Notes: generated from the letters alone by a model not told the origin. A stretch of DNA of 64,000 nt from an uncultured Candidatus Saccharibacteria bacterium (GCA_964525295.1 CAZGEO010000001.1:248662-312661); one strand, 5' to 3'; counted from the stretch's first letter, positions 1 through 26,806 are shown. Numbers and translations: made by a program.

Positions 1-1953
1 TCTAAACAAGGTAATTTGCGATGCACTCTGCGGATCGACTGCAATTGATATAGCACGCGACTTCTTGTCATTTTCTGCGGTATTTATTTTCTCGCCAAGA
101 TATACATTAAAGTACGGTGGATCATTATTTTCTTTCACAATTTGTGAGGGAAATGCATAACTCAAGTGAGTAACTGTAATGATAACCTCTTCATTATGAT
201 TGCCTAATTGAAATGTGCCTCGCGCATCAGTAACCAAGGTTTCAAGTAATTTCGAATTATCTGAAGCAAGAAGTACCCTCACGATTGCTCGAGATATAGG
301 TTTTTTGGTAAGTGAATCATACACAATACCGACAATATTCTTTTCTGCAGTTCTTGCCATCGAGAATAATGGATATAGAAGTCTATAAGCAAAATCTGCA
401 CCAAATAATTGAGTCGCAACTGAAACCGCACCCGCTTGAAACTTTCCGCCTGGTTTTCCAGCCAATAGAGCAGAGAAGCCTCTAATTAGTCCATCTAAAC
501 CGACTAAAATTACAATACCAGCAGAAACAATTGTTTGTTCCTCAGTAAATGTTGTTGTGGTATTTGCAGGGGGAACTGGAGAAGTGATAATTGGTGTAGT
601 TGGAGGAACATACGGAACACCGCTCGTTGGTTCAATTTCATCTGAAATGTGTGGCGTCATATCAAACAACGTAACACTCGGTGTTACCGAAGTAGTAACT
701 GAAGGCGTTACACTTGTCGTAGCTACAATTGACGTTGAGACAGTTACCGAAGGCGTTATTGTTACTGTTGCGGTTGGTGTGCCCGTTGACGTGACGCTTG
801 GCGTATAAACTATCGTGGACGTTGGCGTGATTGTTGGTGAAGGTGTCGCAGTTGGCGTTATGGTTGGGGTATCAGTCGGAGTGTCAGTTGGGGTCGCAGT
901 AGGTGTATCGGTTGGGGTATCAGTCGGAGTGTCAGTTGGAGTCGCTGTCGGCGTATCGGTCGGAGTTGGAGTAACATCATCACCATAATTTGCAAAAACA
1001 TTTATTCGTGCCTGACCAGACTGCGAAATGAGCACATTTCCTGAGGGAAGAACAAGAACATCAGCGGGTTCATCAAATTGCTCAGGATCTGTACCCCAAA
1101 CTCCCCAATGGGTAATGTACGTTCCGTCACTGCTAAACTTAATAACGAAATCTGTTGAATATTCGGTCGTATAGATATTATCGTTCTCATCAATGCCCAT
1201 TCCAACTGCGGTATAAACCTCATCAGGATTATTCTCATAGCCTTGGATAGACCATTGTGTTTGATAAGTAAAATTCGAATCAAATTTTTGAACACGCGCA
1301 TTGTCGTCACTAACGTAAATATTTCCAAGAGAATCAATCACAATTCCATTCGGAAAATTGAATTGACCGGCGCCACTTCCAGTGGCTCCGTAGGTATTTA
1401 GTAAAGTTCCCGCACTTGAATATTTTTTTACTCGGTGATTATAAGAATCAGCAATCCAAATATTACCTGCAGAATCTGTTATTACATCCCAAGGACGATT
1501 TAATCCTGCCGTAATTGTGACTAAACGATTAAAATTTGAATCATAAACTAAAACCGAACCTGCATTCAGGCCAATACAGGTATTAGTAACGTAAATTCGA
1601 TCGAGTGAATCGACCCACATTCCTTTTGGACAGTTGATATCTGCATCTGAATAACTGGTAATAAAAGCTCCTGAATCAGAAAATACCCGAATCTCATGAT
1701 TATCTCCATCAGCAACAAAAATGTTTCCACTACTATCAACGGCCAATCCCCAGGGGGTAGACCATGAATCTCCGCCTTGAATGGTGCTCCAATTCGAAAC
1801 AAACTGCGCAGCAAGTACACTTCCTTGTCCTATCTTTTCTTCTATTGGATTTTGTGTGAATGTTTTAGATGTCACTAAAAGCGAAAATGCGAGCCCAACA
1901 GTCAAAATGAGGAGAGTTATAACGACACCTTTCTTTCTACCTTGATTTAACAC
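1..1953 (-). CDS. Secreted NHL-repeat beta-propeller protein (partial; C-terminus lies beyond the window start) with Thr/Pro/Asp-rich linker and a C-terminal carboxypeptidase-regulatory-like segment
   Basis: My own translation of the minus strand gives the N-terminal region ...RKKGVVITLLILTVGLAFSLLVTSKT (signal-peptide-like) followed by repeated NHL-type motifs (YNHRVKKYSSAGTLLNTYGATGSGAGQFNFPNGIVIDSLGNIYVSDDNARV). Positions about 560-1000 encode a PTDTPTDT... low-complexity linker. Positions about 190-260 encode LETLVTDARGTFQLGN, which resembles the CarboxypepD_reg fold. The probable start is GTG at about 1953 and there is no in-frame ATG. The gene is not in the ORF track because it runs off the window edge. 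Confidence 0.6.
   Translation of the reverse strand, partial: MLNQGRKKGVVITLLILTVGLAFSLLVTSKTFTQNPIEEKIGQGSVLAAQFVSNWSTIQGGDSWSTPWGLAVDSSGNIFVADGDNHEIRVFSDSGAFITSYSDADINCPKGMWVDSLDRIYVTNTCIGLNAGSVLVYDSNFNRLVTITAGLNRPWDVITDSAGNIWIADSYNHRVKKYSSAGTLLNTYGATGSGAGQFNFPNGIVIDSLGNIYVSDDNARVQKFDSNFTYQTQWSIQGYENNPDEVYTAVGMGIDENDNIYTTEYSTDFVIKFSSDGTYITHWGVWGTDPEQFDEPADVLVLPSGNVLISQSGQARINVFANYGDDVTPTPTDTPTATPTDTPTDTPTDTPTATPTDTPTDTPTITPTATPSPTITPTSTIVYTPSVTSTGTPTATVTITPSVTVSTSIVATTSVTPSVTTSVTPSVTLFDMTPHISDEIEPTSGVPYVPPTTPIITSPVPPANTTTTFTEEQTIVSAGIVILVGLDGLIRGFSALLAGKPGGKFQAGAVSVATQLFGADFAYRLLYPLFSMARTAEKNIVGIVYDSLTKKPISRAIVRVLLASDNSKLLETLVTDARGTFQLGNHNEEVIITVTHLSYAFPSQIVKENNDPPYFNVYLGEKINTAENDKKSRAISIAVDPQSASQITLFR
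557..1000 (-). repeat. Low-complexity coding repeat (Thr/Pro/Asp/Val-rich linker; core PTDT tandem about 841-975)
   Basis: Direct nucleotide repeats (ggtatcagtcggagtgtcagttgg recurring). The + strand frame gives the GVTxxV artefact ORF 557..808, and the minus strand encodes the PTDT repeats. Confidence 0.7.
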
Positions 1954-2062: not shown

Positions 2063-2602
2063 ATGGCAAAAGCAGCGCCTACAATTCTAATTATCGAAGA
2101 CAATCAAGATTTAGTTGAGATGTATCGTCTGAAACTTTCACTCGAAGGTTTTCAAGTTGAAACAGCAACTGATGGAGAACAGGGTATTCTTAAAGCTGTA
2201 GAGTCAAAACCAGACATGATTCTTCTTGATATCTTAATGCCAAATATGAATGGATTCGAAGTACTTAAAGCTCTTCGTAATAACACACAACTCAGTACAC
2301 AGATTATAGTTCTTTCAAACCTCGGTCAATACGAAAACATTAAGGAAGCAAAAGACCTCGGTGCAACCGAATACATGGTCAAAGCAAATACAACACCAAC
2401 AATGGTTGTTGCAAAAATTAAAGAATTATTAGGTTTGCAGAATACTCCAAAAGAAGCATCTAACATCACGACCGCCGTCAAAGAAGAAGATAAAGATGCG
2501 ATTATTGCCGAAAAATTAGAACGTTATAAAAAGCTTCTTGATGAAGGTGTCATCACTCAACAGGAGTTTGATGAGATAAAGAAGAAGTTGTTGTTTAGCT
2601 AG
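2063..2602 (+). CDS. Stand-alone response-regulator receiver (REC) protein with C-terminal SHOCT-like motif
   Basis: ILIIEDNQDLVEMYR...ILLDILMPNMNGFEVLKAL...YMVKA carries the CheY-like Asp/Thr/Lys signature. The C-terminal ERYKKLLDEGVITQQEFDEIKKKLL matches the SHOCT pattern. Confidence 0.75.
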   Translation: MAKAAPTILIIEDNQDLVEMYRLKLSLEGFQVETATDGEQGILKAVESKPDMILLDILMPNMNGFEVLKALRNNTQLSTQIIVLSNLGQYENIKEAKDLGATEYMVKANTTPTMVVAKIKELLGLQNTPKEASNITTAVKEEDKDAIIAEKLERYKKLLDEGVITQQEFDEIKKKLLFS

Positions 2603-2671
2603 TAGATTTCACTAAGACCTTGTGAACAACAATAATTGCGATTTATAGGTTAAAAATGATATACTTCGACA

Positions 2672-3778
2672 ATGTCAATTATTAGCTTGCCGAAAACCGA
2701 GAATCAACCCAAAAACTTTTCTGCCGACTTGGTGACAGGTTACATAAGAATTGGCCCTCGAGAACCTATTTCACTCTTAGAATCATTGAATACAGAAAAA
2801 TCGCGAGAGCGTGACACCAACGAAAAAAGAATTTCATCCCAAAACCATTTTGATTTTATTGTTCAGTGGCGCTCGCGAATAGGCAACAATCATGGATACT
2901 CAAATACCTTACTTGAAAAAGTAAGAACTACAACTTTTTTACTTGCTGGCGTTGGAACAATTGGCGGACAGGCAGGTCTGAGGCTTGCAGAATGGGGTGC
3001 CGAAAGCATCATCGCCATTGATCCCGATTCTCCAGGTATTCATAATCTATCAAGACAAGCCGCAACATACTCAGATGTAGTCAAAAATACATCAAAACCC
3101 GATGCTTTCAAACAAATTGTAGAAAGCAAAAACCCCTACGCTAAGATTGATTCGCGTCATGAAGCTATAACTCCAGAAAATGCGGAAAAATATGTAACTG
3201 CTTCTGACATAATTATTGATGCTATAGATATAGCTGGAATAGATGGAATTATTGCGTTGCATGAAGAAGCCTGTAGACAAAAGAAAGTTGTAATTACTGG
3301 ATTCGATCTCGCGGGAATGTCATATATCAGGGTATTTGATTACAGAAAACTTACAAAACCATTCGAAAATTCATCTGTGACCCCTCAATATATTGAACAA
3401 GTTAAAAATGCTGTAGCAGCTCACAGAACAGGACAAATATCAGTAGAGAAATATGACGGAATTGTGAACGCTTTTACAACAAAGCTCCTAAATCCACTAC
3501 ATGTTCCGAATGAGGAATTAAAGCTTCTGTTGCACAAGAAAGTGGGCGAGCCACACATGCAATATCCACATACTGCAAACAATATTGGCAACATCATTTC
3601 AGAGGTAGTACTGAGAATTCTTAATGATCAACTCGTAAAAGATACCATCAAAATCGACTTAACCGATCAGGTAATAGTACGTTCAAAAATTCGCAATAGG
3701 CTCGAGCGAATGTTTTTACTTATTAAAGTCTTAACGCAGGTCGATGCAAAAGAGAAAGACGCAATGAAAAAAAGTTAA
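2672..3778 (+). CDS. ThiF/MoeB/E1-like adenylyltransferase-fold protein with N- and C-terminal extensions
   Basis: FLLAGVGTIGGQAGLRLAEWGAESIIAIDPDSPGIHNLSRQ is the Rossmann GxGxxG plus the D.D..NLsRQ ThiF signature. It has no CxxC zinc pairs and no rhodanese domain. Confidence 0.7.
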   Translation: MSIISLPKTENQPKNFSADLVTGYIRIGPREPISLLESLNTEKSRERDTNEKRISSQNHFDFIVQWRSRIGNNHGYSNTLLEKVRTTTFLLAGVGTIGGQAGLRLAEWGAESIIAIDPDSPGIHNLSRQAATYSDVVKNTSKPDAFKQIVESKNPYAKIDSRHEAITPENAEKYVTASDIIIDAIDIAGIDGIIALHEEACRQKKVVITGFDLAGMSYIRVFDYRKLTKPFENSSVTPQYIEQVKNAVAAHRTGQISVEKYDGIVNAFTTKLLNPLHVPNEELKLLLHKKVGEPHMQYPHTANNIGNIISEVVLRILNDQLVKDTIKIDLTDQVIVRSKIRNRLERMFLLIKVLTQVDAKEKDAMKKS

Positions 3779-3793
3779 GTTTAAATAAACATT

Positions 3794-4867
3794 ATGGTAT
3801 TACCAGATCAACCAAGCTCATTTGAAATACATAAAGCCCCCGCTGAAATTAGACAAACATACTTCTCTCCCGAGTCCAATGAATTGGTAGCACGTCAAAT
3901 TATTGAGCCTTCAATGCTCTTAGAAGCCAATCAGAAAGTGGCGATGACATACAAAAAACATGGGTACCTTACCGATCAAAAAATACTTACAGTTCCAAAA
4001 GATATTGATCCTGTTGATCTCATGGATAGGCGATACAGCGAATCACTTGCTATGACGCTAATTCAAGCACAACATGGCCCAGAAGGAGTTGCAGAGTACC
4101 TGCATGGACATGTCTTCATAGCTCAAAGACCAACCGAAAGTGAAGGACAATCTGGTGAATTACTCGGTTTAATTGATGTGTATATTCCAAAACAACGTAC
4201 ATATATAGTCACAGGGAACGGTGAAATTCTTTACTCTGTACGTACAATTCCCAAAACTGCGGAGCGAAAGCTACCAATTCAACAACTAACTCTAATCGGA
4301 GATGCACTGCAGCAAAAAGGTATAGATCGACGCACAGCAGACAATGAAGGAACACCTGCACTATTCATCCCAGAAATGCTTGATAAAGAACTTCTCAGCA
4401 GACTACTACCCGGAGCAAAATACGAAGAAGTAAATGCTTTACTCACAGAAGCTTCACCAAGAGCAACGATCAATGCATTACAAGTCGAACTCTCTCAACT
4501 CGCCGTATGTACAGATGATTTACGAATTCCTGATGCGTTTGAAAAGCTATTTGCAGCATTATTTGCAGATGAAGAAAAGCATGGGATACGTCAATTCGGC
4601 GCCGTGCTAGATTTTGGAGCATTAATACTCGAAAACGCATTAAGAAAAGTTGATAGCGAAGAACGCCCAAGATTCGGCATTATTCCATTGGCTGAAAAGA
4701 CCAGGTATATGGGTTCTCCTGTCGTCCCTGTATTAATTGATAGAGATTATTCAATTCAAACGGTTGCAAAAACACATCCACGATTAGCTGAAATATTAGA
4801 AGGACTATTGCCAGACAAAATTCGAGAATCTATCAAGAGATTAACAACTGTCGTAGAAACTGTATAA
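3794..4867 (+). CDS. Hypothetical protein (357 aa), fold not recognised
   Basis: Clean ORF lying 16 bp after the ThiF-like gene and 7 bp before the histidine kinase. I recognise no motif with confidence. Confidence 0.5.
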   Translation: MVLPDQPSSFEIHKAPAEIRQTYFSPESNELVARQIIEPSMLLEANQKVAMTYKKHGYLTDQKILTVPKDIDPVDLMDRRYSESLAMTLIQAQHGPEGVAEYLHGHVFIAQRPTESEGQSGELLGLIDVYIPKQRTYIVTGNGEILYSVRTIPKTAERKLPIQQLTLIGDALQQKGIDRRTADNEGTPALFIPEMLDKELLSRLLPGAKYEEVNALLTEASPRATINALQVELSQLAVCTDDLRIPDAFEKLFAALFADEEKHGIRQFGAVLDFGALILENALRKVDSEERPRFGIIPLAEKTRYMGSPVVPVLIDRDYSIQTVAKTHPRLAEILEGLLPDKIRESIKRLTTVVETV

Positions 4868-4873
4868 TACATT

Positions 4874-7207
4874 ATGATTACAGGAGACCTTATATTTGTT
4901 GGCATACTAATTGTCGCATTATTTTCCGTTGGAGGTGGAGTATATCTTCATGATAGAAAATCCTTTACTGCTAGGTTCTTTTTAGCCTTAGTAAGTTTCA
5001 TGGCCATATGGTTACTTTCCAACTTTCTCTCAAACTACGTAAAAAACGAATGGCTCGCAATTGCCACAAATAGACTCATCTTCACATCAACAACCTTTGC
5101 AATCTGGCAATTATTAATATTCACAAAAAACTACCCAGAAAGGGGAAATATTGTTACAAAGAGATTTTTCTGGATTTCCTTAGTTCCAACGATTTTAGTA
5201 GGAATAATTGGGCTAACTCCATTAATTGTGGCAGGAGTACAAATTAGGGTTAGCTATTCAGAAATAATCTTTGGAACTGGCATTTACGCGTATATCGCCC
5301 ATATTTTATTTTGTCTCGTCCTATATGTTTGGGTTCTTATTCAAAAAGCGCGAACACTTCAAGGAATTGACAAGGCTAGACTTCAATACTTGTTTACAGG
5401 GTTAACAATCTCAACCGGAGGTATTTTGTTAACCAATTTAGTAATTCCAATTTTCTTTAACAACTTTGTACTAACCAATATAGGTCCGGCATTTCTTTTG
5501 CTTTTCGTTGGGTTTACTGCATTTTCAATTATCGAAATTCGACTCACCGGTATCCGCAACCTATTATTTCAAATTACCAATCTGCTAATATTGGGTCTAC
5601 TACCAGTACTTGCATTTTACCTCACACGTTACTTGTCTAAAATTAATTTCATTCATGCCGACGCAACAATAGAGTTTGCTCTAATTTTTGTTATCATGAC
5701 AGGTTCTTTCTTACTAATCTCAAAGAGTATCTCCGTTGTTAGGAAATTTCTGCAAGGTGACTTAATGAGCACAAGTATAGAATTAGAAAAAATTAAGAAT
5801 TCATTTTCGAGTCGAATTAGCACTGAACTTGATCTAAAGAAACTCAGTAAGTTGACTTGCGATATCATAAGAGAGACAGTCGGAGTTACTGATATCTCAA
5901 TAACGTTATTGGATCTTGAAAATAAATCCGTGATTTCACACGTCAACGAAGGATTTAAAAAAGCAAATATTGTACCTGAAGAATTACTTACATTTACAAC
6001 CTACTGGAGGCGCCTACATGCAGGGTATGTGCTAGTGCGAGATGAACTTGAACACCTCGACGAAAGTGAACTAACAGACTTAATGCGTCATGCACTTGAA
6101 TTTTTGAAAAAACACAGTATAGCAATCATGATTGCTTTAAACGGAAGTACACAAACCCACGGATTCATACTAATTGGAGAAAAGATAAATTTTAATGCGT
6201 ATACCTCGGAAGAAATTTCTTTTTTGACTGCGATTATAGCGAACAATGCTTCTGTGGCAATTTCAAGAGCGTTACTATTTGAACGCCAAAAATATTTTAA
6301 TTCAGAATTAAACGAAAAGGTTAAGCTCAGGACAAAAGAGTTAGAAGCTGCGAAATTATCACTTGAAGATAAAAATATTCAGATTAGAAATGCATATCAC
6401 GAACTGAAAACACTAGATAACGCAAAATCCGAATTCATCTCAATTGCTTCACACCAATTGCGTACACCGATCTCTATTATTAAGGGCTACCTTTCAATGA
6501 TTCTAGAAGGTGATTTCGGTAGCATGCCTGAACCTCAACTTATCGCACTTCACAAAGCTTCTGATAACATCCAACAGTTGAACGATATTGTAGAGGATAT
6601 TTTGAACGCCTCGAGAATTGAAAGAGGGAAAATGGCAATTTCTCCAGATAGAACAGAGATTATCGAATTAGTCAGAAATGTAGTTGAACAACTACAACCC
6701 AAGGCTGATAAAAAAAATCTTACCCTAACATATAAAGGTTCTATTAAAGAATTCACAACTTTGGCAGACCGCAATAAGATCTACGAGGTTATTATCAATC
6801 TTGTTGATAACGCATTGAACTACACGAAAGAGGGAAGTGTTACAGTAATAACCGACAACACTCCAGAAGGTGACCTACTCATAATAGTTAAAGACACAGG
6901 TATTGGTATTCCAGAAACATTCAAAGATAAAATGTTCCAACGCTTCAGCCGATCTGATAATGCAAAATCCGTTAGGCCCGATGGAACTGGTATTGGGTTA
7001 TATGTTGCGAAATCCTTTATTGATGCTCATCAAGGCCAAATTTGGTTTGAAAGTACTGTAAATGTAGGAACGACATTCTTCGTGAAGTTACTTAAGAATC
7101 CAGTTTTTCCTGCTGCACCAAGTGAAGAGACAACCCCAGAAACGAAAATTATTGAAGCAAAAAAAATTGCAAAGGAGACAAAAAAGAGACACCGTCAACC
7201 TCAATAA
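4874..7207 (+). CDS. Sensor histidine kinase: multi-TM N-terminal sensor, GAF/PAS-like middle, HisKA plus HATPase_c
   Basis: About 8 hydrophobic helices in the first 300 aa. H-box SHQLRTPISIIKGY. ATPase motifs NLVDNALNYT and GTGIGL. Lys-rich C-terminal tail. Confidence 0.8.
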   Translation: MITGDLIFVGILIVALFSVGGGVYLHDRKSFTARFFLALVSFMAIWLLSNFLSNYVKNEWLAIATNRLIFTSTTFAIWQLLIFTKNYPERGNIVTKRFFWISLVPTILVGIIGLTPLIVAGVQIRVSYSEIIFGTGIYAYIAHILFCLVLYVWVLIQKARTLQGIDKARLQYLFTGLTISTGGILLTNLVIPIFFNNFVLTNIGPAFLLLFVGFTAFSIIEIRLTGIRNLLFQITNLLILGLLPVLAFYLTRYLSKINFIHADATIEFALIFVIMTGSFLLISKSISVVRKFLQGDLMSTSIELEKIKNSFSSRISTELDLKKLSKLTCDIIRETVGVTDISITLLDLENKSVISHVNEGFKKANIVPEELLTFTTYWRRLHAGYVLVRDELEHLDESELTDLMRHALEFLKKHSIAIMIALNGSTQTHGFILIGEKINFNAYTSEEISFLTAIIANNASVAISRALLFERQKYFNSELNEKVKLRTKELEAAKLSLEDKNIQIRNAYHELKTLDNAKSEFISIASHQLRTPISIIKGYLSMILEGDFGSMPEPQLIALHKASDNIQQLNDIVEDILNASRIERGKMAISPDRTEIIELVRNVVEQLQPKADKKNLTLTYKGSIKEFTTLADRNKIYEVIINLVDNALNYTKEGSVTVITDNTPEGDLLIIVKDTGIGIPETFKDKMFQRFSRSDNAKSVRPDGTGIGLYVAKSFIDAHQGQIWFESTVNVGTTFFVKLLKNPVFPAAPSEETTPETKIIEAKKIAKETKKRHRQPQ

Positions 7208-7313: not shown

Positions 7314-7850
7314 TTATTTCTGTCGAATAGCCATTTGTATGCCTGTCACAACCGCAATTCGCATATCCAGACGTTCTTCTGCGTTCCGTGGAGCAATCAA
7401 TACTGGTTCGGTAATTTGTTTTCCAGTCTCAATGTCAACTTGTGACTGCGATGCAGTATGAAGTGTCAACTCTCGTTTATCCTCAGATAAACTCAATCTA
7501 TAAACTGTACGAGTCCATGGTCCTTTTTTAGGAAAAAGTTTTAAACGTGTCGGGGTCTCATCTTCCGTTAATTGCATATCGTACCCACCTTCTGGTAAAT
7601 GCACTATATCCCATTTTCTTCTTACCAAGAACTGCCCGAAACGATTATATTCATCAAACGGTTCACCATGAAACCCACGTTTACGATTACGTCCATCTGC
7701 CAATACAGCTAGCTGAGCAACTTTTTCTGGATAATAGCCAGATAAATCAATTTTTAGGTCTTGAGGATCTAGTTTTGGATCATCATCGAATTCTCTTTGC
7801 AACCTGTAAGTCAATCTTCCAAAAGCTTGTATCATACGGTATTTTACCAC
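7314..7850 (-). CDS. Hypothetical protein (178 aa)
   Basis: Longest ORF in this region with ordinary protein composition. It overlaps two shorter + strand ORFs that I judge spurious. Confidence 0.4.
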   Translation of the reverse strand: MVKYRMIQAFGRLTYRLQREFDDDPKLDPQDLKIDLSGYYPEKVAQLAVLADGRNRKRGFHGEPFDEYNRFGQFLVRRKWDIVHLPEGGYDMQLTEDETPTRLKLFPKKGPWTRTVYRLSLSEDKRELTLHTASQSQVDIETGKQITEPVLIAPRNAEERLDMRIAVVTGIQMAIRQK

Positions 7851-8037
7851 AAATCAGGCTTATAAGCGTATAGTTTGCGAAAAATATTCCGTTTTTATTG
7901 GCCCCTATGCTATAATTCGCCTATATCGCCCGCTGGAAAGTGGGAATCCGTAGTGGCTAACATTGCAGAAAATCCCACTCAAGGAAGGGCATAGCCCAAC
8001 CAACAATAACAAAATAGTTAACTAAAAACTAAACAAT

Positions 8038-8601
8038 ATGGCACAAACCGATCAAATCAAGAAAAACATGTTTATCATGTATAACAACGAACCATATTTC
8101 ATAACTGATGCAGAGTTTTATTCGCCGGGCAAAGGATCAGCATTTACTCGCGTGAAAATGAAGAACTTAAACACCAGCCGTGTCATTCCTTTCACCTTCA
8201 AATCAGGGGAAAGAGTAGAAGAGCTAGAGGTTATGTTCAAAACAATGCAGTATCTTTATGCAGATGACAACAATGCAACCTTCATGGACCCAGAAAGTTA
8301 CGAACAATACACAATATCTCTCGACATTATCGACAACTTCATCAATTACATGAAAGCAGGAAGTGATTATATCTTAATCATTTATGACAACAAGCCAATT
8401 TCTATCAAATATCCGCCACAAGTGGTACTAGAAATCACCGAAACTTCAGCAGCCGTAAAAGGAAATACTGCAAACAGCGCAACAAAAGAAGCTGTTGTTG
8501 AAACAGGGGCAAAGGTTCAAGTTCCAATGTTCCTAGACATCGGGCAAAAAATCAAAGTAGATCCAGTAACTGGGTACTATATGGGGAAAGCAACTGAATA
8601 A
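8038..8601 (+). CDS. efp: Elongation factor P
   Basis: SPGKGSAFTRVKMKNL matches the EF-P KPGKGxAFxRxKLKNL loop, and the modifiable Lys is present. Confidence 0.9.
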   Translation: MAQTDQIKKNMFIMYNNEPYFITDAEFYSPGKGSAFTRVKMKNLNTSRVIPFTFKSGERVEELEVMFKTMQYLYADDNNATFMDPESYEQYTISLDIIDNFINYMKAGSDYILIIYDNKPISIKYPPQVVLEITETSAAVKGNTANSATKEAVVETGAKVQVPMFLDIGQKIKVDPVTGYYMGKATE

Positions 8602-8699: not shown

Positions 8700-11228
8700 T
8701 TATAATTGTTTAGCGATATCTCCCAACATTCTTTCAACTCTTAATTCATAAAACCGTACAACTCTTGGGAATTCTTGTGAATATTTACGCTTAAGTAGCT
8801 CAAATTTATTCGTTATCAGTGATTGTTCTTTAGCCGGATCGAATGTAAACAACCAATTTGTATCTACAAAAAATTCGCGCGCTCGAACAGGTAACTCCTC
8901 ACGATAGAATGAATTCAAAATTTCAGCATAACCGCTCCTGATTTCATCAGTTAATGGCGAATGACGTTCGCGTACTGCCCAAACATAAAGTGACAGAAAC
9001 AATTTCATCTCAGGTGAGGTTTCTAAATCACCATATTCTCTTAACCCATCTAAAAATGCTTCTGTATCGATTTTTTTATCTAGGTAAGTGTCACAATATA
9101 TGTAAAAAGCGTGCAAACGTTCGCTAACTCTTAAAAAATCTTCTTTTGAGAATTGCGAATACAACGAATCCCAAAGATAGCCCCAATAAGGAATTACCTG
9201 TTCATGCTCCCGATATCCTGCAAGCGATTTTTGTGGTAAATTTTCATGCATAAACCTAAACCCAACACCGAACCTCTCGCGTAAGTAAACTTCATTCTTA
9301 ATTGCATTGAGCTCTTCTTTTGTTTGTGCTGAAAAGAGTAACATAGAGTAGTAGTGAAAGGGTGATTCTAACCCTTCAGGAGGCATATCCAGACGAGGTG
9401 ATCTTTTTCCCGAGGACAATTTCAATAAAGTACCTGTAACTTCAAGAAAAAGCTCTGCTTCTTCGAATTTTCCTTCCCTAATTAACCCTGTGACTTTTGC
9501 AATATGTAGCTCGGACATTGAATACATAAGGTCGGGATTCTTTTCTACAGGCAAGCCTTCTTGCCATTGCCTTCCGATTATATATATGTCACTTACTTGA
9601 GCAAAAATATGTTCCTTTTTTGGGCCTTCTGGCATCTGCCATAGTGCAAGAGCAAAATTAATTTTTTTCAAAAAATCTTCATCAGCAATTTCGGCAAGAG
9701 CAGTTAAATCGCCAGTTTCCAAGTACTGTCTTACCGCCCTAATACTTGGTAATTTTTTCATTTCGAGATATTCTTCAGATAAAAACTGAACCTTAGGTTT
9801 AGGGTCATTAACAGTCATATACTCTGGTAATGATGGCTCGAATTTACTATATTTCTCAATTAACAAAGATCTCTTTAGTTGGCGTTCTTCAGTTTCGGGA
9901 GTATCTTTTGCGTAAAATTCCCATAAAAGATCTGATACTACAAAAGCGAATTCATAATTGAAAATTGGAAGCAATACAGCCATATTTTCTAATGCTTCTT
10001 TATTGAGAACATTTTTTTGCATCAAATCAGCAAAAAATTCTGAAAAAAAGATTTTTTGATTGGTGGCCATTTGGCGAGAATTGTAATCTCGTACATCTTG
10101 ACGTCGAAAATGAGTTACAAAAGCTAAAGGTGTCATGCCACGTTCGGCAGTTAATAAATCAAAAAGTATTGCTTTTCCTGCTTGAGATCTAGTTAAAGTA
10201 CCAATATTTCCCATTCTATCTACTGCTTGTTCGCAGTCTTTGAGCTGCTCAAACATTACAACATCAGCGAAATCTGCTACTCCAAATCGAGAATTTGTAA
10301 AACGATAAAGGTTCTGTCCATGAGTTGACCCCGCAGTATGAATCATTTGCTCCCGAAGCAACTCCCGCAATACAATTCCCATGTTGCGATAATCTACCTC
10401 TTTCAATGAAGCTAAAGACGTAAGGTTCTTCTCAGGGGAATAATACGTTTCAATAACAGGATATCGTTTAGAACTAGGTACGCATAATACTAACGTCGAA
10501 AGATTTGTTCCTTCATCATTATTCATCGCTTCCTTAACTTTTTCGCGCTTTTCTTTACTCATAAGAATCTCTTTTGTTTCTTGTAAACGAGAAGAAAGCT
10601 CAGGTAAACTAGTTACCGTTAAAGGAAAAGGAATCTCACTAGTAAGCACTTCTTGTAATGTATTAATCTCTGGATGCGCATGTAAATAGGAAGAAAATCC
10701 AAGTAATGTTTGAATATACTCATTCAAGGCAGCCTTTCTTGCTTGTGTACCGACAATTCGCATATTCAATCTTCCATCAGTCGGTTTCTCATGATAAAAC
10801 TTATCAGGGGTCGTTACCCCGACAGGAAACGCTGGTAGCAACGAATCGCGTGAATGACCATAGCTTAATGATCTAGCCACAGATCCGTTTCCCTTTAAGT
10901 AAAGCGTAATTTCTTGACCATTAACCATTATCTGTGATTGATAAATTCCTCTGCCTTCAACTTCATACGGCGCTTCAACAAATTCTCCGTTTTCATCTCG
11001 CTCATCACTAGTTTTACGTGCTGGTGTCAAATACGCCATTGGCTCAACTGCCTTTGCTAATTCGTAGATCTCTTTGATTAAATTTTTCTTTTCGGAAGGC
11101 AAGATTATCTCCAAATCCGCCTTTAATTCCTCAGGGGTAACTATCGCTAGCCGTTCCCCTGATTTCGCCTTTTCAATAAAAGTTAGCTGTGGCGAAGGTG
11201 GAATTGCTTGCTTTGATGCTTCGGACAT
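8700..11228 (-). CDS. Large (842 aa) protein with N-terminal atypical protein-kinase-like domain (possible pseudokinase) and a long alpha-helical C-terminal region
   Basis: EVEGRGIYQSQIMVNGQEITLYLKG resembles a glycine loop plus the beta3 Lys. GIVLRELLREQMIHTAGSTHGQNLYRFTN resembles the Kdo/RIO-type catalytic loop with the catalytic Asp replaced by Gln. VADFADV is a DFG-like motif. Confidence 0.5.
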   Translation of the reverse strand: MSEASKQAIPPSPQLTFIEKAKSGERLAIVTPEELKADLEIILPSEKKNLIKEIYELAKAVEPMAYLTPARKTSDERDENGEFVEAPYEVEGRGIYQSQIMVNGQEITLYLKGNGSVARSLSYGHSRDSLLPAFPVGVTTPDKFYHEKPTDGRLNMRIVGTQARKAALNEYIQTLLGFSSYLHAHPEINTLQEVLTSEIPFPLTVTSLPELSSRLQETKEILMSKEKREKVKEAMNNDEGTNLSTLVLCVPSSKRYPVIETYYSPEKNLTSLASLKEVDYRNMGIVLRELLREQMIHTAGSTHGQNLYRFTNSRFGVADFADVVMFEQLKDCEQAVDRMGNIGTLTRSQAGKAILFDLLTAERGMTPLAFVTHFRRQDVRDYNSRQMATNQKIFFSEFFADLMQKNVLNKEALENMAVLLPIFNYEFAFVVSDLLWEFYAKDTPETEERQLKRSLLIEKYSKFEPSLPEYMTVNDPKPKVQFLSEEYLEMKKLPSIRAVRQYLETGDLTALAEIADEDFLKKINFALALWQMPEGPKKEHIFAQVSDIYIIGRQWQEGLPVEKNPDLMYSMSELHIAKVTGLIREGKFEEAELFLEVTGTLLKLSSGKRSPRLDMPPEGLESPFHYYSMLLFSAQTKEELNAIKNEVYLRERFGVGFRFMHENLPQKSLAGYREHEQVIPYWGYLWDSLYSQFSKEDFLRVSERLHAFYIYCDTYLDKKIDTEAFLDGLREYGDLETSPEMKLFLSLYVWAVRERHSPLTDEIRSGYAEILNSFYREELPVRAREFFVDTNWLFTFDPAKEQSLITNKFELLKRKYSQEFPRVVRFYELRVERMLGDIAKQL

Positions 11229-11246
11229 ACGTTACTATAACAAACA

Positions 11247-12344
11247 ATGCTAGAATGCTCCAGTAAGATAAATCGAACAAAAATGAGTTTTTACAAACAA
11301 TTACTAAATAACACTAAAACAAAAGAGCAGTACCTTCTGAAATTGCAAGTCATTCGCGAAATTCGAAACTTTTTCGAAAAAAAGAAATTTTTAGAAGTTG
11401 AGCCACCAATTTTGAATAGCGCACTAATTCCCGAATCATATTTGGATATTTTTTCAACTGAAGAGAGAAGGGTAGGGCTAGAAGGAAAAATTGCCCGTCA
11501 GATGTATTTAATGACCTCACCTGAGGCATTCCAGAAGAAATTACTTTCCGCAGGTTTTGGAAGCAATTTTGCAATCACCAGAAGCTTCCGAAACGGCGAG
11601 CCATTATCAGGTAAGCACCTAAGTGAGTTCTCGATGCTTGAATGGTACGAAAAGGGTAGTAATTATCGCGATGTCATGGTAACTACCGAACAATTATTTT
11701 CTCATCTTGCCAAGGCGATTAACGGAAAAGGCATAAAAACAATCGAATATAAGGGAGTTACTGTCGACCTAACACCACCATGGGACCGCATATCAGTCAA
11801 TGAACTTTTCAAACGTTTTCTTTCGATAGATTTGGAAGAATCTTGGGACAACGAGCGACGTGCTTTTTCTGTGAAACTTTTAGCAAATATCGTCAAGACC
11901 ACCGGATTACCGATTGCAATAGAAGAGTCGAATACTTGGGAAGAAATTTATAATCAATTGTTTCTAACCTACATTGAACCAAATTTGCCAACAGAAAAGC
12001 CTGTTATCATTTACAATTACCCGCACGAGCTTTCTCCTCTTGCTAAACCAAAAAATGGTTCTCATGCCGAAGGGAATGTTTGGGCAGAACGATTCGAAGT
12101 AATGATTGCGGGGCTTGAAATTTGCGATACTTACACAGAAAATACCGATGCGCGACTACAAAGCACCTCATTTAAGCGTGAGATTGCAAAGATCGAGGCC
12201 GATGCAACAAAAACACAGTACCCCTATGACTGGGAATTTGTTGAAGCTTTAGAACACGGTTTGCCAGCCTGTAGCGGAAATGCCCTAGGAATCGATAGAG
12301 TTGTGATGCTTTTCGGCGGTTTTGAAGAAATCCTTGAGGCATAA
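11247..12344 (+). CDS. epmA: EF-P-(R)-beta-lysine ligase (PoxA/GenX), class II LysRS paralog
   Basis: MYLMTSPEAFQKKLLSAGFGSNFAITRSFRNGE...HLSEFSMLEWY and the C-terminal PACSGNALGIDRVVMLF align closely with E. coli EpmA. The biological start may be the internal Met at 11283 (MSFYKQ), because 11247 lies only 18 bp from the divergent neighbouring start. Confidence 0.8.
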   Translation: MLECSSKINRTKMSFYKQLLNNTKTKEQYLLKLQVIREIRNFFEKKKFLEVEPPILNSALIPESYLDIFSTEERRVGLEGKIARQMYLMTSPEAFQKKLLSAGFGSNFAITRSFRNGEPLSGKHLSEFSMLEWYEKGSNYRDVMVTTEQLFSHLAKAINGKGIKTIEYKGVTVDLTPPWDRISVNELFKRFLSIDLEESWDNERRAFSVKLLANIVKTTGLPIAIEESNTWEEIYNQLFLTYIEPNLPTEKPVIIYNYPHELSPLAKPKNGSHAEGNVWAERFEVMIAGLEICDTYTENTDARLQSTSFKREIAKIEADATKTQYPYDWEFVEALEHGLPACSGNALGIDRVVMLFGGFEEILEA

Positions 12345-26644: not shown

Positions 26645-26730
26645 CTGGGCGGAGAGGGAGTCGAACCCTCACGCGGGGGTTGCCCGCAAAAGATTTTGAG
26701 TCTTTCGTGTCTGCCATTCCACCACCCGCC
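26645..26730 (-). tRNA. tRNA-Leu (anticodon CAA), class II with long variable arm
   Basis: The reverse complement is GGGCGGGTGGTGGAATGGCAGACACGAAAGACTCAAAATCTTTTGCGGGCAACCCCCGCGTGAGGGTTCGACTCCCTCTCCGCCCA. It has a 7-bp acceptor stem, anticodon loop CTCAAAA, T-loop GGTTCGACTCC, and no encoded CCA. Confidence 0.85.
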
Positions 26731-26806
26731 CAGACTGAAGAATTATAACAAGTATTTGAACATTTCACAAACGAGATGAGTCACCTGTTACTGAAGAATT
26801 ACAAGA

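Follow-up and report, generated by a model that had tools for sequence, protein, structure and literature searches.

The 64,000-nucleotide stretch of uncultured Candidatus Saccharibacteria DNA analyzed here (hereinafter the window) carries, at positions 2063-7207 of its plus strand, four co-directional and tightly packed ORFs that encode a REC-SHOCT response regulator (RR; 2063-2602, 179 aa), a ThiF/E1-superfamily adenylyltransferase, apparently of an adenylation-only type (2672-3778, 368 aa), a cytosolic protein that we denote X (3794-4867, 357 aa) and a polytopic, 7TM-type sensor histidine kinase (HK; 4874-7207, 777 aa). The ORF positions confirm the arrangement described in the initial annotation, and the tight spacing reported there stands as well; the figures of 70, 16 and 7 do not, being coordinate differences, and the untranslated nucleotides number 69, 15 and 6. 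No terminator-like site was found on the plus strand within 2063-7207. The best promoter candidate of the region, a sigma-70-like TTGACA-17-CATAAT on the same strand (1998-2026, 11 of 12 consensus positions), precedes the REC start by 36 nt; because promoter-like sites are in total no more numerous than expected from shuffled sequence, this site is weak evidence.

The outer two genes constitute a two-component system. In the regulator, a linker connects a receiver with the Asp pocket (Pfam Response_reg, 4.8e-23, 81.9 bits) to a SHOCT domain at the C-terminus (1.6e-07), as had been proposed, and no DNA-binding domain is detected by Pfam; SHOCT may serve partner binding (PMC3581485). The phospho-acceptor is D56 (codon 2228-2230) which, along with D13, S85 and K107, is invariant in the alignment of homologs. 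The kinase, recognized from the outset as a multi-TM protein, combines HisKA (1.3e-14, 54.4 bits) and HATPase_c (7.7e-26, 91.1 bits) in a DHp+CA core (6374-7108), with an H-box histidine, H527 (codon 6452-6454), that is invariant across homologs. Its plus-strand membrane domain (4874-5743) is of the polytopic 7TM type, residues 1-275 holding at least 8 hydrophobic segments, and the protein also matches HisKA_7TM (6.2e-06, 26.7 bits) just below the gathering threshold. Between the membrane domain and the core lies a variable middle domain (5774-6373), possibly GAF-like, although unconfirmed as such (GAF_3, E 0.11 only).

The ThiF-like protein matches PF00899 at residues 78-233 (3.8e-21, 75.8 bits vs. 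a gathering threshold of 28.1), and its homologs in two related loci, L005 and L002, are flagged by the same Pfam family. The stretch GVGTIGG...DPDSPGIHNLSRQ, by which its Rossmann domain was first noticed, is present at residues 93-129 and includes the nucleotide-binding GxGxxG (GVGTIGG, 2948-2968) and the NxxRQ arginine finger (NLSRQ, 3044-3058), both, like the Mg-binding Asp183 (3218-3220), encoded on the plus strand. Across the three homologs, which are 36-40% identical, G93/G95/G98, D117, N125/R128/Q129, K142 and D183 are invariant, and the active-site set (GxGxxG, acidic end of beta-2, NxxRQ, phosphate Lys and Mg Asp) aligns with the TcdA equivalents. The nearest solved relatives, all over the adenylation core only, are TcdA, an unnamed ThiF-type protein (9egb), MoeB and UBA6; the top PDB match in the single-sequence search is TcdA (E 2e-8), and a further PDB search has PaaA and MccB among its matches (E 7e-9 to 4e-8). 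The adenylation core and its active-site residues are shared with MoeB, ThiF and TcdA; unlike these enzymes, the protein lacks Zn-binding CxxC pairs and a ThiS/MoaD partner, and it carries a conserved insertion (~60-70 aa) and ends differently at the C-terminus. We infer that its C-terminal third consists of this insertion and the diverged rest of the E1 fold, with no added domain. As for the two extensions originally ascribed to the protein, the C-terminal one is borne out by conservation in the three homologs, and the N-terminal one is not, only ~25 residues preceding the core in L002.

The sole cysteine of this protein, C201, occupies a helix position and is aligned with a TcdA Cys; the protein contains neither a CxxC nor a crossover-loop Cys. 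Stop-to-stop frames of at least 30 aa ending in GG, scanned in the 64-kb window and the homologous loci, yielded no Ubl candidate, and no rhodanese was found, in agreement with the earlier remark that CxxC, a small GG-ending ORF and rhodanese are missing. Two assignments were considered and rejected, namely a MoeB/ThiF sulfur-carrier enzyme (no GG-ending ThiS/MoaD, no CxxC pairs, one Cys) and TcdA, the tRNA ct6A dehydratase (NF011696, 35.8 bits vs. a cut-off of 304). The best NCBIfam matches are to ThiF families, and the scores of 36-68 bits vs. cut-offs of 152-377 (TIGR02354, 67.9/152; TIGR02356, 52.7/275; TIGR02355, 44.9/377) show that this is not the plain MoeB/TcdA ortholog which the initial annotation had named as evidence against its case. 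Given the single Cys, the lack of CxxC and the lack of a Ubl partner, the sequence is best read as that of an adenylation-only enzyme rather than a conjugating E1.

Protein X indeed has no recognizable fold: the Pfam search gives nothing, there is no sequence match in NCBIfam, PHROG, PADLOC or PDB, and both of two AlphaFold2 runs ended at pLDDT 34. None of these results identifies X as an ordinary metabolic enzyme, the other outcome by which the initial annotation would have been refuted. An exhaustive HMMER search of 1.84 billion representative proteins retrieved only two homologs, P0003 (E 1.6e-49) and P0004 (E 2.8e-10), and the X gene is the constant 3' neighbor of the ThiF-like gene. Not one of the 57 invariant positions in the alignment is a Cys; the window protein carries an insertion of its own (~45 aa, about residues 165-210). 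The motif that had been likened to a JAMM site, EYLHGHVFIAQRPTESEGQSG, is present at residues 101-121; its HxH (H104/H106, EYLHGHV) is not conserved, being replaced by R/Y and Y/Y-type residues in the two homologs (P0003 reads QRGYV), and Pfam JAB gives no match even at E up to 10. X is therefore neither a JAB protein nor, having no invariant Cys, an E2, and a JAMM/MPN+ metalloprotease was rejected because the conserved E...HxH...S..D metal site is missing. Comparison of X with a LuxI/NAS-like profile (ELSQLA vs. ELSRFA) gave an hhalign probability of 1.1% (P 0.046), with an equal score for the reversed control and the same score reached by 1-4 of 150 shuffles; a LuxI/N-acyl-synthase-like reading of X is not statistically supported.

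The order REC-SHOCT, ThiF, X, HK is identical in all three lineages that possess X (the window, L005 and L002-L004), and the embedding of the E1-like gene among signaling genes thus recurs in related genomes. Identity to the window is 40% for ThiF and 36% for X in L005, and 37% and 28%, respectively, in L002-L004; the gaps after REC in the related X-bearing lineages are 0-28 nt (0, 1 and 28 nt in L002, where ThiF starts directly after the stop codon of REC). The genes around the cassette are housekeeping ones (EF-P, EpmA-like, tRNA-related), and the locus is syntenic chromosomal DNA of normal composition, with no relatives found in viral contigs. The block from the upstream oxidase through HK to EF-P is syntenic in all lineages, so that part of the cassette's conservation reflects simple common descent. 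Within this block, evolution is fastest in ThiF, X and the sensor (36-40% identity between the window and L005 for ThiF and X vs. 75-76% for the neighboring housekeeping genes).

A sister lineage, represented by two independent JGI samples (L086 and L087), has a different enzyme in this position. Here, the REC-SHOCT gene (80% identical to that of the window) is followed, after 5 nt, by the gene for a 512-aa ANL enzyme of the PaaK/F390-synthetase-like kind which overlaps the start of the 7TM HK gene by 4 nt; EF-P then follows. The L086 protein matches PDB 4r1l (E 8.1e-8), with both the P-loop-like SxGSTGK and the GRxD..G.N.FP hinge (GRSD..G.NIFP) aligned, and because it scores 48.9 bits against TIGR02155 (3.5e-13) vs. 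a cut-off of 646, it is a member of the ANL family, not a PaaK ortholog. Thus, two non-homologous adenylate-forming systems share one slot, with the proviso that the L086 contig is short and ThiF and X could sit elsewhere in that genome. With this lineage included, an enzyme gene and the sensor kinase gene are adjacent in all four lineages.

The membrane domain of the kinase follows the enzyme. By EF-P (identity to the window 77% in L086, 76% in L005, about 70% in L002/L003) and by REC-SHOCT, which is better conserved than any other gene in the cassette (82% in L005, 80% in L086, 67% in L002/L003), L086 is as near to the window as L005 is, and L002/L003 form the outgroup. The 7TM domains are 46-53% identical among the three ThiF+X loci, the outgroup included, vs. 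23-24% to L086; in DHp and CA, the window shares 58% and 52% identity with L086, and 51% and 44% with L002. The 7TM domain accordingly tracks the type of the embedded enzyme, whereas REC, DHp and CA track organism relatedness. As only four lineages are available, this co-variation comes from one replacement event. Both the conserved cassette and a co-variation with the enzyme type that is specific to the sensor region of the kinase disfavor the non-functional juxtaposition that had been entertained for the locus; with no classical partner and an unrelated adenylating ligase in the slot of the sister lineage, the other initial suggestion, a signaling-coupled adenylation module, is the best description.

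We tentatively propose, with somewhat less than even confidence, that the four genes form one signaling module whose enzymes belong to the input side, where they produce the ligand that the 7TM kinase reads. That the enzymes probably make the sensor's cue is suggested by the sister lineage, which swaps in an unrelated activating enzyme together with a different sensor membrane domain. The ThiF-like enzyme, in which the active-site residues are present, would adenylate a carboxylate with ATP, and, as its substrate, a small molecule is more likely than either a protein or a peptide with a leader. X might perform or scaffold the partner step, either by supplying the acid, e.g., as an N-acyl-amino-acid synthase in the manner of TyzA/OxzA for TyzB/OxzB, or by capturing the adenylate. 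The product, probably lipophilic, would be read by the 7TM domain of the adjoining HK, as the co-variation suggests, and HK would phosphorylate D56 of REC-SHOCT which, given the lack of a DNA-binding domain, is expected to act on some conserved partner encoded beyond the cassette. In the sister lineage, the PaaK-like ANL ligase alone could replace ThiF and X by combining adenylation and transfer in one protein, and the change from ThiF+X to ANL along with a different 7TM sensor would amount to a swap of matched synthase and sensor. Counting against such a synthase-sensor arrangement, the cassette encodes no exporter, and the ThiF-like and X enzymes are cytosolic.

Paired genes for an autoinducer synthase and a polytopic sensor kinase occur in Vibrio (LuxM/LuxN, CqsA/CqsS) and Legionella (lqsA-lqsR-hdeD-lqsS), the synthase being an AHL synthase or a PLP-dependent acyltransferase; the Lqs response regulator has no classical DNA-binding output. 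The cassette resembles these systems in that the gene for a cytosolic, here putative, small-molecule synthase adjoins that of a multi-TM HK and, as in Lqs, its regulator lacks classical DNA-binding output; it differs in the ThiF-type adenylation plus orphan protein, in the location of the enzymes between the RR and HK genes, and in the SHOCT output. The peptide quorum-sensing operons agrBDCA, fsrABDC and comQXPA are polymorphic in pherotype: the signal maker diverges in step with the sensor domain of the HK, and conservation is retained in the RR and the kinase core; the gene order in fsr is RR, maker, HK. Likewise, putative signal-making genes lie here inside a two-component operon, in the order of fsr, and, as in agr/comQXP pherotype variation, the sensor domain diverges with the enzyme, with REC and the kinase core conserved; putative synthase and sensor domain thus co-vary as in a quorum-sensing cassette, in the single replacement event. 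Unlike agr, fsr and com, the cassette has no gene for a precursor peptide, membrane protease or prenyltransferase, its enzymes are soluble and adenylating, and its RR is of neither the LytTR nor the NarL type.

A chemical precedent is the production of acyl-oxazolone lipids by the stand-alone ThiF protein TyzB together with TyzA, a sequence-orphan acyltransferase with the AHL-synthase fold, and a flavin desaturase (PMC10404671); OxzAB is a further acyl-oxazolone pathway (PMC12596934, section 4.1.1). Like TyzB (~320-370 aa), which acts on a small molecule, our protein is a stand-alone ThiF homolog without a Ubl partner, and like TyzA (~320 aa), which only its structure reveals to be an AHL-synthase/FeeM-like acyltransferase, X is a sequence orphan; a TyzA or FeeM fold could not be demonstrated for X. 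Unlike the cassette, the Tyz and Oxz clusters lie outside two-component systems.

Alternatively, the enzymes could belong to the output side, with phosphorylated REC-SHOCT binding and switching on ThiF and X as effectors, e.g., for modification of an envelope or cytosolic target. In favor of this scheme, a domain for transcriptional output is missing from the RR, its gene directly precedes those of the enzymes, abutting ThiF in L002, and its SHOCT domain may bind partners. Nevertheless, we consider it rather unlikely: REC-SHOCT is ~80% identical whether ThiF+X or the unrelated PaaK-like ligase comes next, which makes docking to both enzyme types unlikely, and it is the HK sensor, not the RR, that co-varies with the enzyme type, which argues against the enzymes as the target of REC-SHOCT.

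In another scenario, a ThiF protein of the MccB/PaaA/EnfB kind would act on a tiny precursor, with X as a tailoring or recognition partner, and HK would sense the resulting RiPP pheromone. PaaA and MccB are among the PDB matches, yet these span the adenylation core only, and the N-terminal region, which in MccB and PaaA holds a peptide-binding clamp, shows no conservation and is nearly missing from L002; no N-terminal peptide-clamp or RRE-like domain and no adjacent precursor gene (>10 aa) was found. A precursor may measure only 7 aa (PMC6495379), below the size of the ORF scans used, and some ThiF-like RiPP clusters adjoin agr-like pairs of an AgrC-like HK and a LytT RR, proposed to be quorum-sensing systems (PMC11256085). 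The cassette shares with MccB, PaaA, EnfB, GrcB and IndF an E1-like adenylation without a thioester-forming Cys (PMC12250964, PMC11256085, PMC12150305); unlike their clusters, it has no conserved N-terminal peptide-binding domain, detectable precursor, transporter or peptidase gene, X has no counterpart in those systems, and the gaps in L002 are too short to accommodate a precursor gene within the cassette. A RiPP pheromone therefore seems quite improbable.

The ThiF-like protein could also be a divergent TcdA/MoeB/ThiF enzyme of tRNA modification or sulfur transfer which, with X as an accessory, shares a transcript with an unrelated two-component system. TcdA as the top PDB match, ThiF families as the best NCBIfam matches and the housekeeping surroundings are consistent with such a role. 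However, every NCBIfam equivalog score is far below the cut-off, no ThiS/MoaD-type ORF, CxxC or rhodanese accompanies the gene, ThiF and X evolve much faster than their neighbors, a PaaK-like ligase takes the same position in the sister lineage, and the co-variation of the sensor would be left unexplained, so that we hold a housekeeping hitch-hiker to be a poor prospect. The conjugation reading of the initial annotation, taken here as a Ub-like conjugation system or an anti-phage one (Bil, CBASS Cap2/Cap3 or 6A-MBL-like) in which X would serve as a cryptic E2, as a JAB or as the target, is extremely unlikely, given that the PADLOC E1-E2 models and NF058523 (6A-MBL cap2_3) match the ThiF protein (E 6e-11 to 3e-8) but span the shared adenylation core only, that there is no Ubl ORF and no crossover-loop Cys in the ThiF-like protein, that X has no PADLOC match, invariant Cys or HxH, and that the locus is ordinary syntenic chromosomal DNA with no relative in viral contigs.

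For the proposed synthase-sensor module, a further point of comparison with Tyz and Oxz is the flavin-dependent oxidase encoded nearby. A PRK07233-type FAD oxidoreductase is conserved upstream of the cassette and directly adjoins REC in L002-L004; unlike the Tyz/Oxz enzymes, it is of the amine-oxidase/CrtI type, not a nitroreductase-superfamily FDO. In two lineages, this flavoprotein lies in a glycosyltransferase cluster, and it may belong instead to the pathway encoded by that cluster.

The four co-directional genes proposed in the initial annotation are all confirmed on the forward strand, with untranslated gaps of 69, 15 and 6 nt. The first (2063–2602) encodes a receiver (Pfam Response_reg, E = 4.8e-23) with a C-terminal SHOCT domain (1.6e-07), here denoted REC-SHOCT, and the second (2672–3778) a ThiF family protein (PF00899, 3.8e-21, residues 78–233). 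The third (3794–4867) encodes the 357-aa protein X, which has no Pfam match, and the fourth (4874–7207) a 777-aa sensor histidine kinase (HK) that matches HisKA, HATPase_c and, near threshold, HisKA_7TM, with at least 8 hydrophobic segments in residues 1–275. Under translation table 11 the coding density is 86% and TGA seldom serves as a stop, which makes the ORF calls sound; among the 54 long ORFs of the whole window, the stops are TAA in 37, TAG in 14 and TGA in 3. Base composition is uniform over the region. The top-scoring sigma-70-like site is 36 nt 5' of the receiver gene, and no terminator-like site was found on the forward strand within the cassette block, both scans returning sites at chance density overall and being weak evidence. 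The 64-kb window holds no additional copy of any cassette gene. Its GC content is 38%, and the sole RNA gene found is a tRNA (26646–26731, reverse strand), with no rRNA detected.

The adenylation residues of the ThiF-like protein (GxGxxG, D117, N125/R128/Q129, K142 and D183) are invariant among homologues that are 36–40% identical. Its closest solved structures are TcdA, an unnamed ThiF-type protein (9egb/9egc, for which no describing paper was found), MoeB, UBA6, PaaA and MccB, and the PDB matches are confined to the adenylation core. All NCBIfam equivalogs score far under their cut-offs (ThiF 68 vs 152, MoeB 45 vs 377, TcdA 36 vs 304), indicating that the protein is no orthologue of any characterised branch; specifically, it is not a plain MoeB or TcdA orthologue, one part of the case that the initial annotation had named as fatal to its proposal of a signalling-coupled adenylation or conjugation module. 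The single Cys, C201, corresponds in the alignment to one in TcdA, which does not form thioesters. The reported absence of a CxxC motif and of a ubiquitin-like carrier (Ubl) also stands, the latter because no plausible stop-to-stop frame of at least 30 aa ending in GG is present in the 64-kb window or the related loci. Given the single Cys and the lack of both CxxC and a Ubl frame, we conclude that the sequence is that of a putative adenylation-only enzyme of the MoeB/MccB/TcdA/TyzB type and not of a conjugating E1. With respect to the two extensions previously noted around the core, the C-terminal third is conserved, whereas the N-terminal extension is lineage-specific: in L002, a related locus, only ~25 residues precede the core, which disfavours a peptide clamp of the MccB/PaaA type. 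The C-terminal third is probably a diverged remainder of the E1 fold with a ~60–70-aa insertion at the crossover-loop position.

Protein X indeed lacks a recognisable family. Searches with whole proteins, half-proteins and a profile, at E-values up to 10, yielded no real match in Pfam, NCBIfam, PHROGs, PADLOC or PDB sequences; chance matches to RecX_HTH2, ICP27 and Toprim_C were dismissed. AlphaFold2 reached a pLDDT of 34 from the single sequence and from a three-sequence alignment alike, and a Foldseek search of the PDB with the second of these models returned only noise (best E 0.09) and was disregarded. No transmembrane segment was found in X. The alignment of X with its two homologues has 57 invariant positions, none of them Cys. 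The suspected JAMM-like HxH motif does not survive this comparison, H104 and H106 being substituted in both homologues; the unconserved HxH and the zero invariant Cys rule out a JAMM peptidase or an E2. By eye, the order of motifs in X (VAxxYKxHGY, YxVRxI, ELSQLA and a Gly-rich C-terminal strand) resembles that of AHL and N-acyl-amino-acid synthases. The LuxI family set used for comparison consisted of five sequences, each validated at 71–287 bits on PF00765; EsaI and LasI agree with their own PDB entries. The hhalign alignment of X with this family falls in the expected register but is not significant, with a probability of 1.1% and P of 0.046, the reversed control scoring 19.6 against 20.3 for the real one and 1–4 of 150 shuffles equalling the real score; hmmsearch --max gave no significance. 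A LuxI/NAS-like fold for X is, on these comparisons, only a lead.

X has almost no relatives. Among 1.84 billion representative proteins, an exhaustive HMMER search identified two homologues, P0003 (E = 1.6e-49) and P0004 (2.8e-10), a third match being a repeat protein that was disregarded. Word-index searches recovered only X itself and P0004, and no relatives were found in GTDB representative genomes, JGI metagenome contigs or viral contigs. A REC-based scan of GTDB yielded only generic receivers (≤42% identity) with no ThiF or X nearby. Both homologues are encoded within a REC-SHOCT/ThiF/X/HK cassette. The four-gene order is conserved in L005, located on a 668-kb ENA contig, and in L002–L004, from three Logan contigs. 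Contrary to the first refuting outcome named in the initial annotation, that ThiF and X are never co-located in relatives, the two occur together in every lineage with X. The L002 genes lie 0, 1 and 28 nt apart. Synteny extends beyond the cassette in all lineages, with a PRK07233-type FAD oxidoreductase upstream and EF-P directly downstream, so that part of the cassette conservation reflects common descent. Of the genes in this block, ThiF and X evolve fastest, with 40% and 36% identity between the window and L005, compared to 76% for EF-P, 75% for an EpmA-like protein and 82% for REC.

A scan of JGI contigs with the highly conserved C-terminal half of REC-SHOCT recovered two sister-lineage loci, L086 and L087, and a fragment, L088. 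In L086, a gene for a 512-aa protein (906–2444) begins 5 nt after REC-SHOCT (80% identical to that of the window) and overlaps the start of a 7TM HK gene by 4 nt, EF-P coming next; in L087, from a different sample, REC is followed by the same gene (1783–2243). The 512-aa protein has no Pfam match at all. Its matches are PDB 4r1l (E = 8e-8), in which the SxGSTGK and GRSD..G.NIFP motifs both align, and TIGR02155 (3.5e-13, well under the orthologue cut-off). It is a divergent ANL adenylate-forming enzyme of the PaaK/F390-synthetase type, and in its own right an unclassified adenylate-forming branch inside a two-component operon. No similarity was detected between this enzyme and either ThiF or X. 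Two non-homologous, predicted ATP-dependent carboxylate-activating systems thus share one operon slot, which indicates that this position requires adenylation and then transfer. ThiF and X together would be the two-protein counterpart of the one-protein ligase.

The exchange of enzymes is accompanied by a change in the sensor. For the pairs window–L005, window–L086, window–L002/L003 and L005–L002, respectively, identity is 76, 77, 70 and 72% in EF-P; 82, 80, 67 and 66% in REC-SHOCT; 74, 58, 51 and 56% in the DHp domain of HK; 63, 52, 44 and 46% in its CA domain; and 47, 23, 46 and 53% in its 7TM domain. In EF-P and REC, the window, L005 and L086 are equally close to one another and L002/L003 forms the outgroup, and the DHp and CA domains rank the relatives in the same way. 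In the 7TM domain the order is reversed, with 46–53% identity among the three ThiF+X loci, outgroup included, against 23–24% between L086 and each of them. Hence the sensor co-varies with the type of embedded enzyme whereas REC-SHOCT does not. In the agr and comQXP pherotype loci, the signal maker and the sensor are variable whereas the kinase core and the regulator are conserved; the present locus is similar in that the sensor varies with enzyme type and the kinase core and regulator are kept. This pattern places the enzymes on the input side, as makers or shapers of the cue read by the 7TM domain. The most parsimonious scenario, which rests on a single replacement event, has ThiF+X as ancestral and swapped out jointly with the sensor in the L086 lineage. 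The co-variation does not suggest a link between the cassette and EF-P modification.

At the sequence level, the HisKA-type kinase with its polytopic sensor, the receiver, which has no DNA-binding output, and the adenylation-only E1-like enzyme, to which X is obligatorily linked, are all intact; in addition, ThiF+X is replaced by an ANL ligase and the sensor co-varies with the enzyme type. In the mechanism we propose, ThiF would adenylate the carboxylate of a small, probably lipophilic molecule, and X would either furnish this substrate or capture the adenylate. The 7TM domain of HK would detect the product within the membrane, HK would phosphorylate D56 of REC-SHOCT, and the latter would act via a conserved partner outside the cassette. 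A bolder and less probable reading is that of a self-contained autoinducer circuit in an uncultured lineage with a small genome, with an undescribed chemistry (ATP-dependent activation or cyclisation of the ThiF type, plus the new X family) and with swappable pherotype cassettes, either ThiF+X or an ANL ligase, that have matched 7TM sensors and one conserved REC-SHOCT. Contigs of 659 and 668 kb, the GC content of 38% and the gene content hint at such a small genome, and the scans did not recover this lineage among the GTDB representatives. Under the autoinducer reading, the product is possibly an acyl-amino-acid or an oxazolone-like lipid.

The nearest published precedent in enzymology is TyzABC/OxzAB, according to a 2025 review (PMC12596934) the only pathway in which a ThiF-like enzyme is known to have a small-molecule substrate. 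There, TyzB, a stand-alone ThiF, cyclises the N-acyl amino acid produced by TyzA, a sequence-orphan acyltransferase of 322 aa with an AHL-synthase fold and 41 homologues, and a flavin oxidase carries out the desaturation (PMC10404671). The flavin oxidoreductase encoded near the present cassette belongs to a different superfamily, but it is conserved nearby and adjoins REC in L002–L004. This PRK07233-type FAD amine-oxidase/CrtI-like protein (NF005560, 399–423 bits; 1797–3134 in L001, a locus of the window lineage, 4019–5350 in L005 and 3241–4596 in L002) has its gene within a GT2-GT4-GT4 cluster in two lineages, while in the third the gene neighbours REC; the protein could act as a third enzyme alongside ThiF and X or belong to a glycan or lipid pathway.

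Among the alternatives, a model in which the enzymes are the output, acting downstream of a receiver that has no DNA-binding domain of its own, is rather unlikely, given that a single regulator would need to dock on unrelated enzymes. Production of a RiPP pheromone has a parallel in ThiF-like RiPP clusters that lie beside an AgrC-like HK and a LytT response regulator and have been proposed as quorum-sensing systems (PMC11256085), but both the N-terminal clamp and a precursor are missing here, and we consider this option improbable. A 9-codon mini-ORF over the ThiF start in the window was dropped as a precursor candidate, having no counterpart in L002, where there is no intergenic space. It is similarly doubtful that the enzymes are housekeeping hitch-hikers, since the co-variation of the sensor with enzyme type would then be unexplained. 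Ubl conjugation or defence is very improbable for an E1-like protein with no Ubl frame in its vicinity. The remaining share falls to something else.

Both a module of signal maker, polytopic kinase and regulator and ThiF chemistry that operates without a Ubl are already known; their combination is new, as are the X family, the REC-SHOCT regulator and the apparent swap between two adenylating systems, each with a matched sensor. If the enzymes make the kinase ligand, the cassette would represent a novel way of producing a bacterial signal and would assign a function to the X family, with three known members among ~15 billion predicted proteins. ThiF+X versus the ANL ligase, with matched sensors, would then be a natural experiment on the co-evolution of synthase and receptor specificity. 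The cassette would also give a first insight into what a REC-SHOCT response regulator does, SHOCT itself still having no known function (PMC3581485). Should this reading fail, the locus would remain a clear-cut case of an E1-like enzyme with no Ubl, E2 or JAB partner.

Several neighbouring genes differ between lineages. A 787-aa NHL-repeat/CarboxypepD_reg-like protein (1–1905, reverse strand, extending past the window start; 5749–8112 in L001) is encoded between the glycosyltransferase cluster and the cassette in the window lineage only, and the Gly/Val-repeat ORFs at 557–808 and 815–988 (forward) are shadow frames of its gene. EF-P (8038–8601, forward), which carries a lysine in its PGKG loop, is encoded after the kinase in 4 of 4 lineages; the EpmA/GenX-like lysyl-tRNA-synthetase paralogue lies nearby in the window (11247–12344, forward) and comes directly after EF-P in L005. 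In the window lineage alone, EF-P is flanked by two ORFs on the opposite strand (7314–7850, 178 aa, and 8700–11228, 842 aa), with no family match and no homologue in L005 or L086. L005 (~7928–8156, forward) and L087 (703–909, forward) each have a single-TM ORF of ~68–75 aa after the last glycosyltransferase gene and before REC; the two are not detectably homologous, and the window has none. The top GTDB match of the receiver, on a Candidatus Altimarinota chromosome (L006, 4327–8756), has a different arrangement, with a 479-aa methyltransferase-like gene, a 7TM-type HK and a double-receiver protein in this order, possibly a further example of a 7TM kinase gene immediately preceded by one for an enzyme.
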